Part shown: positions 17,900-28,010 of the stretch, one piece after another | How positions within the stretch are numbered: the first letter of the stretch is position 1 | Layout of the letters: every line of letters starts with the position of its first letter | Assembly (NCBI GenBank): GCA_965199855.1 | Contig: OZ241326.1 | Location: forward strand, 2,367,486-2,431,485 | Source: a bacterium | GTDB lineage: Bacteria > UBA8248 | DNA: 64,000 bases | Direction of reading: 5' to 3' | Notes under the pieces: model-generated | What the model was told of the DNA's origin: nothing | The model's input: the letters and a program-made list of their open reading frames with translations, nothing else | Database searches by the model: none | Position numbers and translations under genes: made by a program

Positions 17900-18685
17900 A
17901 TGGGAATTCCGTCTTTTCTGGAAAACGTTCTTCTGTATCACCCCCACCGGGAGCTCGACCTGACGCCCGAAAGCTACGGCGTCCCATACGAAGACGTCCG
18001 TTTCCGCGCCGCTGACGGCGCGCGACTTCACGGCTGGCATGTTGCGCCGAAGGAGGCGGGCGGCCCGGTTCTCCTGTGGGCGCACGGCAACGCCGGCAAC
18101 CTCTCGCACCGGGCGGAGAACATCGCGCTCATTCAAAGGGAGCTGGGCGCGGGCGTCTTCGCGTTCGACTACCGGGGCTACGGGAAAAGCGAGGGCAGAC
18201 CGAGCGAGGATGGCCTCTACGCCGACGGCAGGGCCGCCCACGACTGGCTGCTGGCGCGCGCGCCGCGTGAGCGCGTTTTCCTGTTCGGCCGCTCGCTGGG
18301 CGCGGCCGTGGTCGTCCGACTCGCCTCGGAGGGAAGAAAGGCGCGCGGCCTCATCCTGGAGAGCCCTTTCGAGAGCACCCTCGCCATGGGCAAGAAGATG
18401 TTTCCCTTCCTGCCGGTCGGCTGGCTCGTCTCCAAGAAGTTCGACAATGCGTCCATGCTCCCGCAAGTGAAGACGCCCCTGCTGATCCTGCACGGCGACC
18501 GGGACGGCATCGTGCCCCACGCCCAGGGGAGACGGCTCTTCGAGGCGGCGCGCGCGCCCGGCAAGCGCTTCTTCACCATCGAGGGGGCGGGCCACAACGA
18601 CACGTATCTCGCGGGAGGCGCGCTCTACTGGAAGGCGTGGCGGGATTTTCTGCAAAACCCCGAGGGCGGGCGAAGCGGGAGCTGA
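17900..18685 (+). CDS. alpha/beta-fold hydrolase
   Basis: Nucleophile elbow GRSLG and the LILHGDRDGIVP catalytic-triad region. Confidence 0.75.
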   Translation: MGIPSFLENVLLYHPHRELDLTPESYGVPYEDVRFRAADGARLHGWHVAPKEAGGPVLLWAHGNAGNLSHRAENIALIQRELGAGVFAFDYRGYGKSEGRPSEDGLYADGRAAHDWLLARAPRERVFLFGRSLGAAVVVRLASEGRKARGLILESPFESTLAMGKKMFPFLPVGWLVSKKFDNASMLPQVKTPLLILHGDRDGIVPHAQGRRLFEAARAPGKRFFTIEGAGHNDTYLAGGALYWKAWRDFLQNPEGGRSGS

Positions 18686-21432: not shown

Positions 21433-21507
21433 TCCGGCGTAGCTCAACGGCAGAGCAATCGGCTGTTAACCGATGGGTTGTAGGTTCGAATCCTACCGCC
21501 GGAGCCA
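21433..21507 (+). tRNA. tRNA-Asn (anticodon GTT)
   Basis: Acceptor tccggcg/cgccgga, anticodon stem atcgg/ccgat with loop ctGTTaa, T-arm gtagg-ttcgaat-cctac, discriminator G, encoded CCA. Confidence 0.85.
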
Positions 21508-21577
21508 TGGGGGAGGGGGGCAACGGGCCGCCCATTGCAAGTTCTTGACTCCAAGACCGGCGAAAGGAGGCTTGACC

Positions 21578-23455
21578 GTGCTCTTTGCGGAAGCCAAAGA
21601 TAGGATCCGGAGCTGGATTCGCCGCCTTATCAAGTGGCTGACCAAGCCCGAATATCCCACAGAGGCACCCGAACCAATTCCATCGAACGAGGCAAGGCCG
21701 GAGACAACCCACATACTGGCGTCTCCCCCAACTACGGCATCGCCAAAGTCAGAACCGGCCTCTCCTTCCGACCCAGGCGAAGGCACCGACGCGGAACCCA
21801 AGACAACGGACGATTCAGCAAGCAAAGAAGAGCCCAAGAAAGAACCGCGCAAGATAGGACCGAGACGTATCAAGCCGGACAACAATCGCCAAAAACCAAA
21901 TCGCCCCGCACAACTCACCCGCCCCTTCACTCCCAGGGCGGAGTTGCTCTGCCGCCAAGCTCGGGGTTCATCCTGGGAGTTAATTCTGTCCGTTCCCGAA
22001 GAATGCGGCATTGTGAAAATACAACATGACAACAACCCCTTGTCAGTCGACGAAAACGGCGAATGTCGCCCGTCATCATTCTCCGGCACCCTGAAAGTTG
22101 AATACAGCGACGGAAAAACTGACGAGATTATCCCATTGGTCTGCGACAAGACGCCGCTGGTTTTTAAAATGCGGAACGGCTGGCAAGGGTCTGGCCGCAA
22201 AATTAGCGGAATTACTCGTGGGCACTTCATTGTTTTCACGCCTGCTGAATGGAAGCGAACGGGTCGCGTTCCGGTAGAAGCCGAGAACTGCGTGGACGCT
22301 GACTTCCGGGCGCACTACTTCCATGCGCGCAAGAACGACGCAAACGATGAAATTGGCGGATTTAAGGAATATGAAGTCCCGTTGACCCCAACCGGATTCG
22401 AGTTGGAAGGTACTAGAATTTTCGATGATTCTGAAGATGGGGAACTATTCGTTGATACAGTTCCAAGGGTGAAGCCCGCGTCCGGCATCGTCTGGGCGCG
22501 CGTGGGCGAAGAGCGGCAGAGAGGCTGGTCTGGAGAAAATTTCAGACCCGATGACAAATCTCTCAAGAAAGTTCTGAATGGCCGCCAGAGGCGATTTTAT
22601 GTCCGCGTCTATGACGACGCGCCCAAGTTGATGGACAGCGGCGAGTTCCGCTATTACGCGGATCTGCAAGATATTCAGGTGAATGGCGTATCGTATTCGC
22701 AGGACATGCTGTTGCTCCCCACGTCGGACGGGCATTCGCCAACAAGACTGCAATTCATTGCCCGGAATGGAGAGCTGATCTCCCAAGATCGGCTGGAATT
22801 GAAAGGAAACAACCCTCACGCGGCCATTACGCCAGATGGCGTTTTGACAATAGCCCCACACCCGGATGGCGATGAAATAACCTTAGTCTTAAAAGCCAAT
22901 ACAAGTAGCGTGGCCGTCAAGCTCCACTTGCCGCGCGTCTGGTGGAGGCTTGAGCGATCAGGAGAGGAGCCAAGCAGGTGGGGCGACCAACCCCTAAATA
23001 TGACGCGCGATGAGTTTCGAGATCGGGCCAATAAGAGCACCGTGATAAAATTGCGATTGCCTTCACGCATCAAATCTGCCGATGTGGGATTTGGTGATAA
23101 TCTGGACCGGAGACTTCCCATAGGGGACGGATTGCCACTTGGGAACTTTATCGATTATACGGAAATCGACAATCCATCAAGTGAAGAGGTCGAACTGCGA
23201 ATTCGATGCAATAGTGAAAGGCTAACTCTAATCCAACTTGCCGCTGACTTACCTGCCCCTACAAAGAAGCCTCTAACAAACAATATGCCAGACACTTGTC
23301 CAAGCGGCAACAAGGGATTCAGCTGCGGCGAATTGCGGAAGGCCAATCTCACAGCCGCCGATGCGAAACGCTTGCAATTACGTATCGACAGGCGACGCCG
23401 CAGCGAACACAATAGCAATATAGACAGGCTCATGGAGATTGGAAACGATGCCTGA
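21578..23455 (+). CDS. island protein A: 625-aa protein of unknown function (N-terminal amphipathic helix, Pro/Thr/Ser/Glu-rich linker, ~480-aa beta-rich C-terminal region)
   Basis: The track ORF starts inside the tRNA; the likely true start is GTG 21578, with GGAGG 8 nt upstream. The protein runs VLFAEAKDRIRSWIRRLIKWLTKPEY..., then a PTS/E-rich segment, then ...GHFIVFTPAEWKRTG... No nuclease, methylase, ATPase or other catalytic motif was recognised by eye. It overlaps gene B by 8 nt. Confidence 0.6.
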   Translation: MLFAEAKDRIRSWIRRLIKWLTKPEYPTEAPEPIPSNEARPETTHILASPPTTASPKSEPASPSDPGEGTDAEPKTTDDSASKEEPKKEPRKIGPRRIKPDNNRQKPNRPAQLTRPFTPRAELLCRQARGSSWELILSVPEECGIVKIQHDNNPLSVDENGECRPSSFSGTLKVEYSDGKTDEIIPLVCDKTPLVFKMRNGWQGSGRKISGITRGHFIVFTPAEWKRTGRVPVEAENCVDADFRAHYFHARKNDANDEIGGFKEYEVPLTPTGFELEGTRIFDDSEDGELFVDTVPRVKPASGIVWARVGEERQRGWSGENFRPDDKSLKKVLNGRQRRFYVRVYDDAPKLMDSGEFRYYADLQDIQVNGVSYSQDMLLLPTSDGHSPTRLQFIARNGELISQDRLELKGNNPHAAITPDGVLTIAPHPDGDEITLVLKANTSSVAVKLHLPRVWWRLERSGEEPSRWGDQPLNMTRDEFRDRANKSTVIKLRLPSRIKSADVGFGDNLDRRLPIGDGLPLGNFIDYTEIDNPSSEEVELRIRCNSERLTLIQLAADLPAPTKKPLTNNMPDTCPSGNKGFSCGELRKANLTAADAKRLQLRIDRRRRSEHNSNIDRLMEIGNDA

Positions 23456-26400
23456 AACTCGTGACATTGAGAGATGGGTTGATACGATTGGTGCTCGCTA
23501 CGAAAATTATTTGAAAACCTCGTTTTACTTCAAGGACTCGAAACTCCGTGAATCGTTTCAACATGCGTTACAGGGTGGCCGCCTGCTGAAAGGGCCTTTT
23601 CCCGAACCGGCGCGCGACTTCAAAAAAGGCGTAGACGCGAGGCAACTGGCGAAAGAATGTTTTCCTGACAGGGGCGGCGCTCTACTTCCGGCATTACGGA
23701 AAGGCGCTTTGTATGTCCATCAAGAGCGCGCCGTGCGTTGTACTCACACAGACCAGCGGAACATCGTGGTCGCCACCGGTACCGCCAGCGGCAAGACGGA
23801 GAGTTTTCTCTACCCGATTCTGTTCGAGTTGTACCGCCAATACTTGGCGGGAGAACTCAGCGAGCCCGGCGTGCGGGCCATGATCCTGTATCCGATGAAC
23901 GCGCTCGCCAACGATCAAAGAGAACGCCTTGGCGAAATTTGCGAGCAGCTACGCAAGGAGGGTTCAGATTTTGCCCCCATTTTCGGACAGTACATCGGAC
24001 AAACACCCGAAGATCAAAGAGACCGTCGGCGTAACGCCTCTACTCGGGAAGAGGAACGCCTGCCCGGCGAGTTGGTTTTCCGGGAAGAGATGCGGAACAA
24101 TCCGCCGCATATCCTGCTGACCAATTATTCCATGCTGGAATACCTTCTTATTCGTCCGAGCGACAGCCCGCTTTTCGACGTAGACCGAGGCAAACACTGG
24201 CAATTCATCGTGCTTGATGAAGCTCACCAGTACCGGGGCGCCAAAGGGATGGAGATGGGCATGTTAATCCGGCGTCTCAAGCAACGGTTGCGCGATGGAG
24301 GGCGCGAAGATCGTTTCCGCTGCATCGCCACCAGCGCGACCATCGCCACCGGCGAAGGCGAAGAAGACAAACAGGTCGTCGCGAAATTCGCCGAGGAACT
24401 CTTTGCCGAGCCTTTTCGGACATCCGGCATCATTTTGGGAGAACACGAACAACAGTCACTCAAAAAGGAGCCGCGTCGCTTCCATGCGTTCGCGCGCGCC
24501 TTGGAAGGGGCTTTTTTGCTCCATGATGACGGTGAGGATGCGGTCATCCTCAATCGCAAGAGAGAGGTTGGGTGCCGCGCCGAGCCCTTGGAAATCGCGT
24601 TATGCCGGGAATGCGGACAACACTATTACGTCGGCCGGGAAAATGATGGCAAGTTGAAAGAAGCGGTGCGAGATCCCAGTCATCCGAAATTTGGCGTGGA
24701 TTATTACCTGCCATTGGAAAGCGATAATGCCGCTTCTCATGTCTTATGCCGATGCTGCGGCCAACTCTCCGCCGACGGGTCTGCTTGCGATTGCGGCGAC
24801 AGCGCCTCAATTCTCGTCAAGAAGTGCGAATCTCATAAAGAACATCCGGATCACCTGAAGAAATGCGAAGCCTGCGGCTATAGCCGCGGCGGCATCGGCG
24901 ACCCTGTTCAGGAAATCGTGCACGGCTCCGACGGCCCCAACACCGTCATCGCGACCGCCCTTCACGAGTTGCTACCGGAAAGCAGGCGCAAGGTGCTGGC
25001 GTTCGCCGACAGTCGGCAGGAGGCCGCGTTCTTCGCCTGGTATGCTCAGGACTCCTATACGGAGGTACGCGACCGCAATTTGATGTTGCGCGCTTTGAAG
25101 GCTGGGGCAATCGATTCTGAAGGACTGTCCATTGACGACCTCAAAAACCGACTGTTCAAACAGTGGGAACAGTCTGGTCTGTTTGAGAGAGCGGATACCA
25201 GGGAAAGCAAGGACCGAAAGGTGCTGACGGCAATCCTCGGAGAAGCGTTGACGGACGAGAAGAGGCTGTCCTTAAGTGGAGTCGGTTTGGTCAGGTGGTT
25301 CGTCAAAATCCCGGACGACTTGAGACCGCCGGCCTCAATGCTGGAGCCGCCTTGGAATCTAACGGATGAAGAAGCGCGCCGCCTTCTCGCATATCTTTTA
25401 GACGAGTGGCGTGTGCGCTACGCCTTGGCTTTGCCGGACGGTGCAGGGACCCCGTTATGGAACGACGTATCACCCCTGCGGCGGCAACAGGCTTACGGTC
25501 TGGGCACCCCCGGCAAAAGAAAAAACATCGCAGAATGGGGCAGCTCCCAATCCGCAATCGTTGGTCACTTCCTGCGCCGGCTCCTTATGCGAAATGGACA
25601 GTCCGGCAATGACGACCATTCACAATCGATCATGCTGATGAAGGATGTATGGAGCGCATTGCGCGAGCGGGATAAAAAATATGGCCAAAAAGCCGACCAA
25701 ATTCTTTCGTCCGCTAACACAAACGGGACATTCCGCCTCAACTCGCGCTGGCTGCGGACCAAGCTCGCCGAGCCATCTGAAATTTGGGAGTGCGACACGT
25801 GCGCAAGCCTGAGCACCCACAACATTCACAACATCTGTCCTCGAAACGGATGCCCCGGAAATCTGTCGCCTGCCGGCCAATCACGGCTTGAAGAAAACCA
25901 CTATCGAATCCTTTACGAAAAACCCGGCCTGCCACCCACGCTATGCGCTGAAGAACATACGGCTCAAATCGAAAGCAGCGAGGCGCGCCAGAGACAGGAT
26001 CGCTTCAAAAGCGGACAAATACACCTCCTCAGTTCCTCAACCACGTTTGAGGTTGGCGTCGACTTGGGCGATCTCGAGGTCGTATTCCTCCGCAACGTGC
26101 CGCCGGAGCCGTTCAACTATACCCAGCGCGTCGGGAGGGCGGGACGCCGAGAAACGCCGGGATTGGCGCTGACCTACTGCCGCCGCAACCCACATGACTT
26201 GTACCACTACGAAGACCCGGAAAAGCGCGTGATAGAGGGAAAGGTGCAACCCCCAAGGCTCCGGATGACCAACGACAAAATCATCTCCCGGCACATGGCC
26301 GCCGTCGCTCTGTCCGCATTTTTCAAGAATGAGGGAAACGAGGAACGCTTCAGGAATGTCGAATCCTTCATCGGCGATTGGGAGAATCCTCGCGCCGTTT

Positions 26401-27716
26401 CGGACCTGAAGCAGTTTTGCGAAAACAACGAGGCGTTGAAGAATTCGCTACTCCGGAGCGTGCCGGAAGCCATGCGCGAAACAACCGGACTCAACAGCAA
26501 TGATTGGATTAAAATCATCGCCGGCCCGGACAGCCGCCTTGACCGAGCCGAGAAAGAAGTTTCCGACGACTATCAGCGCATGGAAGCGCTTGAAAAAGAG
26601 TACTCGGACAACAGCAAATATAGCGACGCGAAACGTATCAAGCAACGGAGGGATACCATCGCTAACGAACAAACCTTGACCTTCCTCTCACGCAAAGCCG
26701 TAATTCCCAAATATGGCTTTCCGGTTGACGTGGTGGAACTCGATACCCGGGAACTCGATACCCGGCCGCAAAACAGAAGTTCGGCAAGAGTATCGTTGCA
26801 AAGAGACCTGTCTCAAGCCATTGCCGAATATGCGCCGGGCGGTAAAGTCGTGGCGAACAAGCAAGAGTGGGAATCATGCGGTGTAAAAGTAATTTCCGGA
26901 AAGCAATTTCCGGTCAAGCGTTACGCTTACGACGATGCCCGCTATTTTCAGCAATGTGATGAAGAGGGCAATCTTCCAAACAGCAGAAGCAGAAGATACC
27001 TTTCTCCGGTCTTCGGTTTCGTGACACCGCTATTTGAGAAACCCAAGAAGCCGCGGGGACGAGCGCAACGCCTATACACAACACGACCGTTTTTTCCGGG
27101 TTTTGATGAAGAACCGGAATCCAAGGACCTGTTCGGGATTACGGTAACAAAAGCGCAACCGGGAAGCTTGGTCATCCTGTGCGAGGGGCGGAATCAGAAA
27201 GGGTTCTATATTTGCCGCACTTGCGGAAGCCACATGACGAAGCCAGCGAGCGCGCACAAGACGCCGGCAGGATCCAAATGTACCGAGAGATTAGAGAAAT
27301 TTTCGCTCGGGCACGAGTTGGTTACGGATGTAGTGCGCCTGCAATTTTCAGACTTGGGCGACCAGTGGGACGCTTACTCCCTCGCTTACGCCATACAGCT
27401 GGGCGCGTCGAAAACAATGGATGTGCCGGACACGGACTTGAACGTCACTATCACTGGCGACAAAGCATCGGACGAGACGGCGATTGTCTTATATGACAAT
27501 GTTCCCGGCGGTGCCGGTCTGGTGGCGCAGTTGGAACACGAGGGTATATTTCGAGAAATGCTCGGCAATGCCCGAGAACGGGTACAAGGCGGATGTGGCT
27601 GTGACTCAAGTTGCTACGGTTGTCTGCGCAGCTACCGCAACCAGTTCGCGCACCCGCACTTGAATCGCAAAAGAGCTCAAGCCTTTTTACCCGCCGTAGG
27701 CGTCGGGGCGGAATAG
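23448..27716 (+). CDS. island protein B: large DExH-box SF2 helicase with a Zn-ribbon insertion and C-terminal DUF1998/MZB Cys4 domain (DruE/MrfA/DrmA-like)
   Basis: The track start at 23439 is TTG; ATG 23448 gives MPETRDIERW... Motif I VVATGTASGKTESF, Ia ILYPMNALANDQ, II VLDEAHQY, III ATSATI, VI QRVGRAGRRETPG. An insertion between the RecA-like halves carries four CxxC pairs (LCRECGQHYY..., CRCCGQ, CDCGD, CEACGY). The C-terminus CRTCGSH...C..GGCGCDSSCYGCLRSYRNQFAHPHL matches the DUF1998 signature. Confidence 0.85.
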   Translation: MPETRDIERWVDTIGARYENYLKTSFYFKDSKLRESFQHALQGGRLLKGPFPEPARDFKKGVDARQLAKECFPDRGGALLPALRKGALYVHQERAVRCTHTDQRNIVVATGTASGKTESFLYPILFELYRQYLAGELSEPGVRAMILYPMNALANDQRERLGEICEQLRKEGSDFAPIFGQYIGQTPEDQRDRRRNASTREEERLPGELVFREEMRNNPPHILLTNYSMLEYLLIRPSDSPLFDVDRGKHWQFIVLDEAHQYRGAKGMEMGMLIRRLKQRLRDGGREDRFRCIATSATIATGEGEEDKQVVAKFAEELFAEPFRTSGIILGEHEQQSLKKEPRRFHAFARALEGAFLLHDDGEDAVILNRKREVGCRAEPLEIALCRECGQHYYVGRENDGKLKEAVRDPSHPKFGVDYYLPLESDNAASHVLCRCCGQLSADGSACDCGDSASILVKKCESHKEHPDHLKKCEACGYSRGGIGDPVQEIVHGSDGPNTVIATALHELLPESRRKVLAFADSRQEAAFFAWYAQDSYTEVRDRNLMLRALKAGAIDSEGLSIDDLKNRLFKQWEQSGLFERADTRESKDRKVLTAILGEALTDEKRLSLSGVGLVRWFVKIPDDLRPPASMLEPPWNLTDEEARRLLAYLLDEWRVRYALALPDGAGTPLWNDVSPLRRQQAYGLGTPGKRKNIAEWGSSQSAIVGHFLRRLLMRNGQSGNDDHSQSIMLMKDVWSALRERDKKYGQKADQILSSANTNGTFRLNSRWLRTKLAEPSEIWECDTCASLSTHNIHNICPRNGCPGNLSPAGQSRLEENHYRILYEKPGLPPTLCAEEHTAQIESSEARQRQDRFKSGQIHLLSSSTTFEVGVDLGDLEVVFLRNVPPEPFNYTQRVGRAGRRETPGLALTYCRRNPHDLYHYEDPEKRVIEGKVQPPRLRMTNDKIISRHMAAVALSAFFKNEGNEERFRNVESFIGDWENPRAVSDLKQFCENNEALKNSLLRSVPEAMRETTGLNSNDWIKIIAGPDSRLDRAEKEVSDDYQRMEALEKEYSDNSKYSDAKRIKQRRDTIANEQTLTFLSRKAVIPKYGFPVDVVELDTRELDTRPQNRSSARVSLQRDLSQAIAEYAPGGKVVANKQEWESCGVKVISGKQFPVKRYAYDDARYFQQCDEEGNLPNSRSRRYLSPVFGFVTPLFEKPKKPRGRAQRLYTTRPFFPGFDEEPESKDLFGITVTKAQPGSLVILCEGRNQKGFYICRTCGSHMTKPASAHKTPAGSKCTERLEKFSLGHELVTDVVRLQFSDLGDQWDAYSLAYAIQLGASKTMDVPDTDLNVTITGDKASDETAIVLYDNVPGGAGLVAQLEHEGIFREMLGNARERVQGGCGCDSSCYGCLRSYRNQFAHPHLNRKRAQAFLPAVGVGAE

Positions 27717-28010
27717 CCGAAAACACTTTCATTGAGGTTCGTTGGGCGGCTTTTTCGAATTGCAACGCCCCCCTAGTCCCGGCGGTAGCCCCGGCATTTG
27801 GCGAGGATGGCGCCGTCGCGCGAGAACCACTCGGCGGTGAAGCCCGTCCCCTTGGGCAGAAACTTCACCAGGAGCAGGCCCTCGCTCCTGCCGCGCCGCC
27901 AGCGATACCACGAGCCCCTGGAGTCCCGCCCGTCCAGTTTGAGTCCCGTCCTCTTGAGGCGGCTGCCCTGGATGAAGCCCTCCTTCTCCCGGAAGCCGGC
28001 GGCGATGCCC

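Follow-up and report, generated by a model that had tools for sequence, protein, structure and literature searches.

A modular protein encoded upstream of a DruE-like helicase as a probable subunit of a Druantia-type-III-like two-gene cassette

The closest described relatives of the locus reported here are the Druantia type III defence systems. In type III-A, as known from the DruH-DruE pairs of E. coli and P. aeruginosa (structures 9tud and 9tu7), two co-directional and overlapping genes encode a partner protein and, in second position, a helicase of the YprA family. The partner DruH is non-annotatable and consists of Ig-like domains with a C-terminal helical domain, and the genes are found in a mobile context of the defence-island type. 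The same holds in all these points for the cassette described in this paper, which was identified in a stretch of 64,000 nucleotides (nt) from a bacterium of the lineage UBA8248 (assembly GCA_965199855.1, contig OZ241326.1, positions 2,367,486 to 2,431,485), in the following called the window. Its first gene codes for a protein of 625 amino acids (aa), the partner, and its second gene for a DruE-like helicase. We consider it rather probable that the partner serves as the non-catalytic subunit in a two-gene defence cassette that is compact, lacks a nuclease and resembles Druantia type III.

For DruH, an array of Ig-like domains was described together with a C-terminal helical domain, which binds single-stranded DNA (ssDNA) and the stalk of DruE, and for the N-terminal domain an exonuclease site and contacts to the C-terminal domain were reported (bioRxiv 10.64898/2026.05.12.722862, 10.64898/2026.05.13.724313). 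The PLD domains of DruE were shown to be dispensable for defence in the E. coli type III-A system (10.64898/2026.05.13.724758). A "type III-like" branch, most frequently without a nuclease, has been identified by Bell et al. (10.1101/2025.09.15.676423), and a type III-B, in which DruE lacks the PLD domains, by Himpich et al. (10.64898/2026.05.13.724758). Members of this group (M. smegmatis MSMEG_1253/1254; GIH50614.1, Bell et al. 2025) likewise combine a compact nuclease-free DruE with a single upstream partner. The M. smegmatis DruH-DruE pair contains no canonical nuclease, yet it prevents the circularisation and replication of phage DNA (PMC13316683). The helicase class and the two-gene logic are already known from these type III and type III-like systems. 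A more distant parallel is MrfA-MrfB (YprA-YprB), where a YprA-family helicase with an MZB domain is also served by one dedicated partner.

The helicase and its dedicated partner

The two genes and their junction are located in the window as follows.

21578..23455, plus strand: partner gene, GTG start, TGA stop, 625 aa (open reading frame (ORF) and translation)
23448..27716, plus strand: DruE-like YprA-family superfamily 2 (SF2) helicase, 1422 aa, with DEAD, Helicase_C and MZB/DUF1998 domains (Pfam)
23448..23455, plus strand: partner/helicase overlap of 8 nt (ATGCCTGA), the helicase ATG lying within the partner codons GAT GCC TGA

The best PADLOC matches of the helicase were the DruE3 and DruE1 models (E ~4e-154). 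Among structures, the chain 9tu7_Y, a 2108-aa "DEAD/DEAH box helicase", was matched with E=9e-76, while the match to YprA/MrfA (6znp) was weaker (E=1e-20). The chain 9tu7_Y was taken as DruE on account of its matching length and because 9tud, the neighbouring entry, represents E. coli DruH. The motif GTASGKTE, the DEAH box and the MZB cysteines are all present in the helicase. Its C-terminus lies 29 residues past the MZB domain and carries no nuclease domain, and when it is aligned by BLASTP with E. coli DruE (2104 aa), the alignment extends no further than DruE residue 1715, ahead of the PLD region. Since the protein ends just past MZB and the alignment to DruE stops before the PLD region, the helicase is predicted to be a compact, nuclease-free, DruE-like enzyme, which matches the "type III-like" branch of Bell et al. 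and type III-B of Himpich et al. In contrast to the type III-A DruE of about 2100 aa with its PLD nuclease domains, the helicase has 1422 aa and none of these domains, and it also lacks the Vsr-like C-terminal nuclease of Druantia types I and II. It is shorter than its M. smegmatis counterpart (1667 aa). An earlier note, made from the sequence of the window alone, had spoken of a "putative system"; this can be specified as Druantia-like. As a separate observation, the helicase gene contains a perfect 15-nt tandem duplication (GGAACTCGATACCCG x2; window positions 26735-26764), which is translated in frame into ELDTRELDTR.

Homologues of the partner form 118 clusters at 90% identity, and an exhaustive profile search yielded 913 representative clusters at 50% identity with E<=1e-30. 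The gene neighbourhood was analysed in a sample of one genome per species, comprising 69 related loci (L001-L069). In 63 of the 69, a helicase match was identified directly downstream on the same strand, which bears out the co-occurrence with DUF1998 helicases across genomes that the earlier note had proposed as a check. Full-length or insertion-split helicase orthologs were present in 62 of the 69 loci, from more than 10 phyla and with 52-73% identity. The helicase gene is split by insertions of 1-4.5 kb in L039, L055 and L063, and in L044 a decayed remnant in fragments is left; these split and decayed copies suggest that the cassette is frequently inactivated. Among the six loci without a helicase match, L025 and L041 lie on short contigs and L046 and L061 contain truncated partner copies. 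In L001 (9964-12311), the place of the helicase behind the partner is taken by two genes, one for GmrSD_N (DUF262) and one for an AAA_15/AAA_21-DUF3696 ATPase, an arrangement that may represent a recombined defence island or an alternative pairing. A third conserved gene was not identified in these neighbourhoods, the additional "clusters" being antisense or overlapping ORFs inside the partner and helicase genes.

The distances between partner cores correlate with those between the helicases (r=0.88, Mantel p~0.001, 55 pairs), with the partner diverging 1.67x faster. The predicted overlap of the partner stop with the helicase start was confirmed in the window, with 8 nt at ATG 23448; it amounts to 17 nt if the helicase starts at TTG 23439 instead, compared with an overlap of 17 bp in M. 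smegmatis. The distance from the partner stop to the first possible helicase start was most commonly -8 nt (19/54 loci) and spans -164 to +202 nt in relatives, where the negative values are inflated by longest-ORF calling. A coupled stoichiometry of the two products, as deduced from the overlap in the earlier note, is more than an overlap with such a range can show. Conserved co-occurrence, co-evolution and the overlap of stop and start identify the partner as the dedicated, co-evolving partner of one clade of DruE-like helicases, encoded almost always immediately upstream of them.

For the comparison with DruH, the E. coli protein of 1119 aa served as the reference, which is encoded on plasmid CP057056 by a gene overlapping that of the 2104-aa DruE. 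It has the same length as the solved chain 9tud_A, with a match over residues 3-1119. As a positive control, this protein was recognised by the PADLOC model DruH3 (E=0) and by the NCBIfam model YjiT_fam (NF038336, E=2e-286). In contrast, the PADLOC DruH models gave no match on the window partner at E<=1 nor on ten relatives at E<=0.01, and YjiT_fam gave none on the window partner or on four relatives. In the precomputed Pfam annotation, PF27205 and PF27201 are listed together for 43 of the 45 DruH relatives found, with PF27205 alone for one more; of the 118 partner relatives, none has either family listed. A BLASTP search of the partner against DruH was negative. With hhalign, a probability of 0.6% was obtained for 64 partner sequences against 31 DruH sequences, and of 0.3% when the same 64 sequences were compared with the E. 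coli DruH sequence alone. The assignment of the partner as DruH was rejected by every sequence test (PADLOC, NCBIfam, precomputed Pfam, BLASTP and hhalign), and judged by sequence the two proteins are unrelated. The earlier note had regarded a confident match to DruH or to a surface adhesin family, or a lack of conserved pairing with the helicase, as evidence against its view; neither family was matched with confidence, and the pairing is conserved.

The two proteins differ also in size and composition. The partner has 625 aa in comparison to about 1119 aa for DruH, and the alpha-helical domain at the N-terminus of DruH is absent from it, its place being taken by one helix of 20 residues and about 96 disordered residues. 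The eL13-like tail of the partner, on the other hand, is not reported for DruH. The upstream partner of M. smegmatis, with 1132 aa, is called DruH, whereas the partner in the window belongs to a separate family. In the case of MrfA-MrfB, the partner MrfB is a 3'-5' exonuclease, whereas the partner studied here contains no nuclease fold and its helicase is of the DruE branch; a DEDDh 3'-5' exonuclease domain was found neither by Pfam and NCBIfam nor among the structure-search matches listed.

The nearest annotated compact DruE-like helicase that was retrieved is a nuclease-free protein of 1559 aa from the C. butyricum plasmid NZ_CP013238.1 (L073:2759-10644), with 25-39% identity to the helicase of the window. 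It is preceded by an overlapping gene for a hypothetical protein of 1069 aa, for which no PADLOC or NCBIfam DruH match was obtained and which was unrelated by hhalign both to DruH and to the partner family. This protein may represent a further partner family. As it falls outside both DruH and the family described here, the partners of nuclease-free DruE-like helicases appear to be diverse.

Modular architecture of the partner

A model of the partner was built with AlphaFold2 (AF2) using a family alignment of 64 sequences, with a mean predicted local distance difference test (pLDDT) score of 84.6. The protein is a modular string of a basic amphipathic helix, a tether with the motif PRxIGGRR, about five Ig/FN3 domains and an eL13-like tail. 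The parts are encoded as follows.

21581..21640, plus strand: basic amphipathic helix AKDRIRSWIRRLIKWL, residues 2-21 (AF2)
21641..21931, plus strand: disordered Pro/Thr/Ser/Glu-rich tether, residues 22-118 (pLDDT <50)
21845..21868, plus strand: motif PRKIGPRR within the tether, residues 90-97 (family consensus PRxIGGRR)
21932..23275, plus strand: beta core of roughly five consecutive Ig/FN3-like beta-sandwich domains, residues 119-566
23306..23452, plus strand: eL13-like helical module, residues 577-625, GFSxxEL..A.L....A..L.I..D.RRR, a predicted nucleic-acid-binding tail

Several features of this string had been read from the sequence in the earlier note and were recovered in the model. The basic amphipathic N-terminal helix corresponds to the AF2 helix of residues 2-21, for whose best 18-mer, DRIRSWIRRLIKWLTKPE, the hydrophobic moment was calculated as 0.71 and the net charge as +4. 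The linker rich in Pro, Thr, Ser and Glu comprises the 96 residues 23-118 with 51% P+T+S+E and a pLDDT <50. For the remaining beta-rich part, the absence of catalytic motifs was also borne out: the core of residues 119-566 is almost entirely beta-strand with a pLDDT mostly >90, and motif searches of the partner by regular expressions revealed no Walker A, PLD, HxH or SAM-binding motif. The loose matches that were obtained, two long permissive H..N..H patterns and one PD-ExK-like pattern in the tail, were judged to be trivial. The statement that the protein has no recognisable domain holds at curated thresholds, since single-sequence scans of Pfam, PADLOC and NCBIfam gave no match above threshold; it does not hold for the eL13-like tail and for the Ig/FN3 folds, both of which can be recognised.

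The N-terminus is kept in the family as a feature and not as a sequence. Of 198 full-length relatives, 111 contain an amphipathic 14-mer of basic character among their first 35 residues, compared with 8% of control windows, and in six relatives a transmembrane-like segment replaces the amphipathic helix. Some of the relatives without the helix may be explained by wrong start calls. In most full-length relatives, the region ahead of the core, consisting of helix and tether, has a length of 80-400 aa and contains about 60-70% P/S/T/E/A/G/K/Q. A signal peptide was not identified on the partner, the N-terminus being a charged amphipathic helix. From the model, the helix is a candidate for an in-plane membrane anchor or a docking helix. 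It may tether the partner to the membrane, because it is sometimes exchanged for a transmembrane segment and is followed by a long disordered linker; docking to the helicase is the alternative. The linker is unconserved outside the motif PRxIGGRR, in which P90 and R97 are conserved in >=90% of the 64 aligned members, and this motif may serve in docking or in contacting nucleic acid.

In the core, conservation peaks at residues 281-360, with the motifs DDSExGxLF, WARVGEE, GRQGRFFVRVYD and DSxEFRY. Structure searches of PDB and viral libraries returned generic Ig/FN3 arrays and eL13 among the matches listed, and no enzyme fold was present among these matches.

The tail is formed by three helices (residues 583-624, AF2). 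In the single-sequence searches of Pfam, PADLOC, NCBIfam and PDB, a weak eL13 match of the tail was the only one obtained: on the Pfam model PF01294 (Ribosomal_L13e) the window partner scored 17.9 bits, below the gathering score of 24.9, which is exceeded by the relatives P0054 (29.5 bits) and P0023 (25.2 bits). The NCBIfam model of archaeal L13e gave E=3e-10 on the window partner and E=6e-8 to 4e-14 on relatives. When the family profile was compared with PDB sequences, an eL13 chain was the best match (E=3.7e-8), and only with this profile was the weak match raised to significance; eL13 was alone among the 60 matches listed, and the DruH chain 9tud_A was not one of them. The tail matched eL13 in the structure search as well. 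The last approximately 50 aa of the partner are genuinely homologous to eL13, at the level of a domain and not as a ribosomal protein. In comparison to eL13 itself (PF01294; archaeal PRK12277), the similarity is confined to this one module, which forms the C-terminal tail of a bacterial protein of 625 aa. To our knowledge, bacteria have no eL13. A description of a bacterial eL13-like defence domain was not found in the literature.

Distant members of the family carry another module in place of the eL13-like tail, either a complete bacterial uS5 or a KH domain of the NusA type. These replaced-tail variants, P0111 (L074:306-2957) and P0114 (L076:433-3072), are each followed by a helicase of about 1415 aa, and the uS5 tail scores 207.8 bits on TIGR01021, above the cutoff of 164. 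A helicase downstream was likewise identified for the variants with a transmembrane N-terminus. The eL13-like, uS5 and NusA KH tails are all RNA- or nucleic-acid-binding modules. Because these three tails are swapped among members, the C-terminus of the partner is predicted to be an exchangeable nucleic-acid-binding cassette.

Proposed role and alternative explanations

A sensor or scaffold role for the partner, as brought forward in the earlier note, agrees with its array of Ig-like domains and with what has been published on the roles of DruH; by analogy we infer a DruH-like, though sequence-unrelated, sensor or adaptor that would license the helicase. The Ig-like array and the basic C-terminal module would recognise an infection-specific ligand, most likely ssDNA or a structured or RNA-containing nucleic acid on intermediates of phage replication or transcription, with a phage protein as an alternative. 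The partner would then recruit or release the helicase, which would load on ssDNA, unwind it in the 3'-to-5' direction like DruE and block the replication of phage DNA without a built-in nuclease. Until it is triggered, the partner is probably kept on the inner membrane face, or else bound to the helicase, by the N-terminal helix and the tether. The absence of a nuclease is compatible with two published findings, namely that the PLD domains are dispensable in type III-A and that the M. smegmatis system works without a canonical nuclease.

A number of points weigh against this assignment as a defence subunit. Defence, the ligand, association with the membrane and contact to the helicase are all matters of inference in this family, and the analogy to DruH is one of architecture and gene order only, because there is no sequence homology to DruH. 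Ig-like folds are generic, and the N-terminal amphipathic helix was scored in only 56% of the full-length members. In the window, the cassette stands alone amid housekeeping genes. The reports on DruH are themselves in conflict, describing a nuclease-free ssDNA binder, a 3'-5' exonuclease or a protein sensor. The ligand may also be RNA or the ribosome rather than DNA, because the proteins from which the tail modules stem, those of the ribosome and of transcription, bind RNA.

The last point is taken further in an explanation which we regard as unlikely but as a serious rival, in which the partner is a sensor directed to RNA or the ribosome and its tail binds phage transcripts, R-loops or the translation machinery to license the helicase, DNA not being the primary ligand. 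Each of the three exchangeable tails is an RNA-binding module from the apparatus of translation or transcription, one of them being an entire bacterial uS5 with a score above the equivalog cutoff, and the homology to eL13 is significant in sequence and structure. Related Druantia type II and type IV CoCoNuT systems are moreover predicted to target RNA (PMC11090510). However, the YprA/DruE helicases characterised to date act on DNA, and ssDNA is bound by basic helical modules just as easily as RNA. Nor can the commonest tail be put down to mimicry of a bacterial ribosomal protein, as bacteria, so far as we know, possess no eL13. Unlikely too, if with a little more in its favour, is that the partner is a true but extremely diverged and truncated DruH, which would make the locus a Druantia type III-B. 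The gene order and the overlap with a DruE-like helicase are the same, the gross plan of an Ig-like array and a C-terminal helical domain is shared, Ig-like domains readily diverge past recognition by sequence, and the partner of the compact C. butyricum helicase also escapes all DruH models. Against this stand the negative results with PADLOC, YjiT_fam, PF27205/PF27201 and hhalign, while the DruH control was positive, as well as the length of 625 aa instead of about 1100 aa and the tail unreported in DruH.

Two further explanations would remove the pair from immunity altogether. The pair could be a DNA-repair module, housekeeping or accessory, like MrfA/MrfB, since the helicase also matches YprA/MrfA (6znp, E=1e-20) and the YprA helicases include a repair branch (10.1101/2025.09.15.676423). 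This is very improbable, as the resemblance of the helicase to DruE greatly exceeds that to MrfA, neither an exonuclease fold nor such a motif was found in the partner, and the cassette is a low-GC insert that occurs patchily among the phyla, lies between non-syntenic flanks and often has defence genes as neighbours. Hardly credible is that the partner functions on the surface as an adhesin or is secreted as a "eukaryote-like" Ig/FN3 protein by a bacterium associated with a host, with the helicase adjacent by chance. It would account for the adhesins, S-layer proteins and cell-adhesion molecules returned by the structure searches and for the many genomes which we assume, from the names of the taxa, to come from sponge or coral symbionts. 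However, there is no signal peptide on the charged amphipathic N-terminus, the pairing and co-evolution with a cytoplasmic helicase are strict across >10 phyla, and the tails are intracellular RNA-binding modules.

The preferred assignment, a non-catalytic sensor or adaptor subunit, can be extended to a more specific scheme, which as a whole is unlikely. The cassette would be a distinct unnamed Druantia-like type, in which the anchor helix, the tether and the Ig array form a membrane-tethered "fishing-line" sensor. Close to the membrane, the interchangeable tail would detect RNA of the phage, R-loops or replication intermediates composed of RNA and DNA, and the sensor would license the nuclease-free DruE-like helicase to abort replication, and the cassette would have spread horizontally through many phyla, particularly in apparent sponge and coral symbiont communities.

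The partner family was not found to be described in the literature searches. It is not mentioned in the searched portions of the text and supplements of Bell et al. (10.1101/2025.09.15.676423), and it was recognised by none of the PADLOC, Pfam or NCBIfam models tested. In recent work, DruE is regarded as the invariable centre of Druantia, whereas the mode of triggering is ascribed to the partner proteins, with disagreement on the role of DruH. The family described here adds a second, sequence-unrelated partner with the same gross plan as DruH, in which the N-terminal "exonuclease" domain is missing and which is combined with a helicase devoid of a nuclease. If the cassette defends, neither nuclease is essential to the logic of Druantia type III. 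The swap of the eL13-like, uS5 and KH tails provides a directly testable handle on the ligand. The family also marks an annotation gap of at least about 900 clusters at 50% identity, for which the tested models would report at most a lone DruE helicase, because none of the tested PADLOC, Pfam and NCBIfam models recognises the partner.

Genomic context and distribution

The cassette is located in the window directly behind a tRNA gene, with the following features around the start of the partner gene.

21433..21507, plus strand: tRNA-Asn(GTT), left edge of the low-GC two-gene insertion (ARAGORN)
21508..27720: low-GC island of 6.2 kb containing only partner and helicase, with a guanine plus cytosine (GC) content of 50-59% (composition profiles)
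21563..21570, plus strand: Shine-Dalgarno sequence AAAGGAGG, 7 nt ahead of the GTG at 21578 (read from the sequence)

The GC content of the window is about 68%, and in the composition profiles it drops from about 66% to 50-59% directly after the tRNA-Asn. The two co-directional genes are the sole genes of the island 21508-27720. An ATG at 21473 as a longer start of the partner was rejected: it is not credible because the reading frame would overlap the tRNA-Asn at 21433-21507. A repeat search revealed no second copy of the tRNA 3' end as an att-like direct repeat, and no integrase was found around the cassette in the window. A tRNA directly upstream of the partner was identified in 2 of 56 related loci scanned, so that the adjacency to a tRNA is not general. 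In the promoter and terminator scan, terminator-like sites occurred at chance level and promoter-like sites at only about 2 standard deviations above chance, with no such site upstream of the partner gene. The neighbours in the window are housekeeping genes coding for an M48 peptidase, a nucleoside transporter, an ABC ATPase and hydrolases.

The flanks of the cassette are non-syntenic between the genomes that carry it. For 58 large flanking ORFs, strong PADLOC matches were obtained which include type I and type III restriction enzymes, PglZ and DrmA, and in addition GajA, Avs2, PsyrT and PDC-S68. In L076, HigB/Phd toxin-antitoxin genes follow the helicase. Non-syntenic flanks together with neighbouring defence genes are characteristic of a mobile defence cassette. 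Besides the helicase of the cassette, one locus (L035:1815-6812, minus strand) encodes a different DruE-like helicase of 1665 aa (PADLOC DruE1 E=1e-75) a few kb upstream of the cassette.

Nearly all of the 69 genomes with a cassette are metagenome-assembled genomes. The taxa include Poribacteria, Poriferihabitaceae, Spongiisociaceae, SAR202/Dehalococcoidia, Latescibacterota, Binatia and Gemmatimonadota, and judging from their names we take many of them to be symbionts of sponges or corals. For the window itself, an alpha/beta-hydrolase gene at 17900-18685 resembles one located a few kb upstream of the partner in L003, L012 and L028. These three loci are from Latescibacterota, and their helicases are among the closest to that of the window, with about 70% identity. 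Together, these similarities are a weak hint to the lineage of the window.

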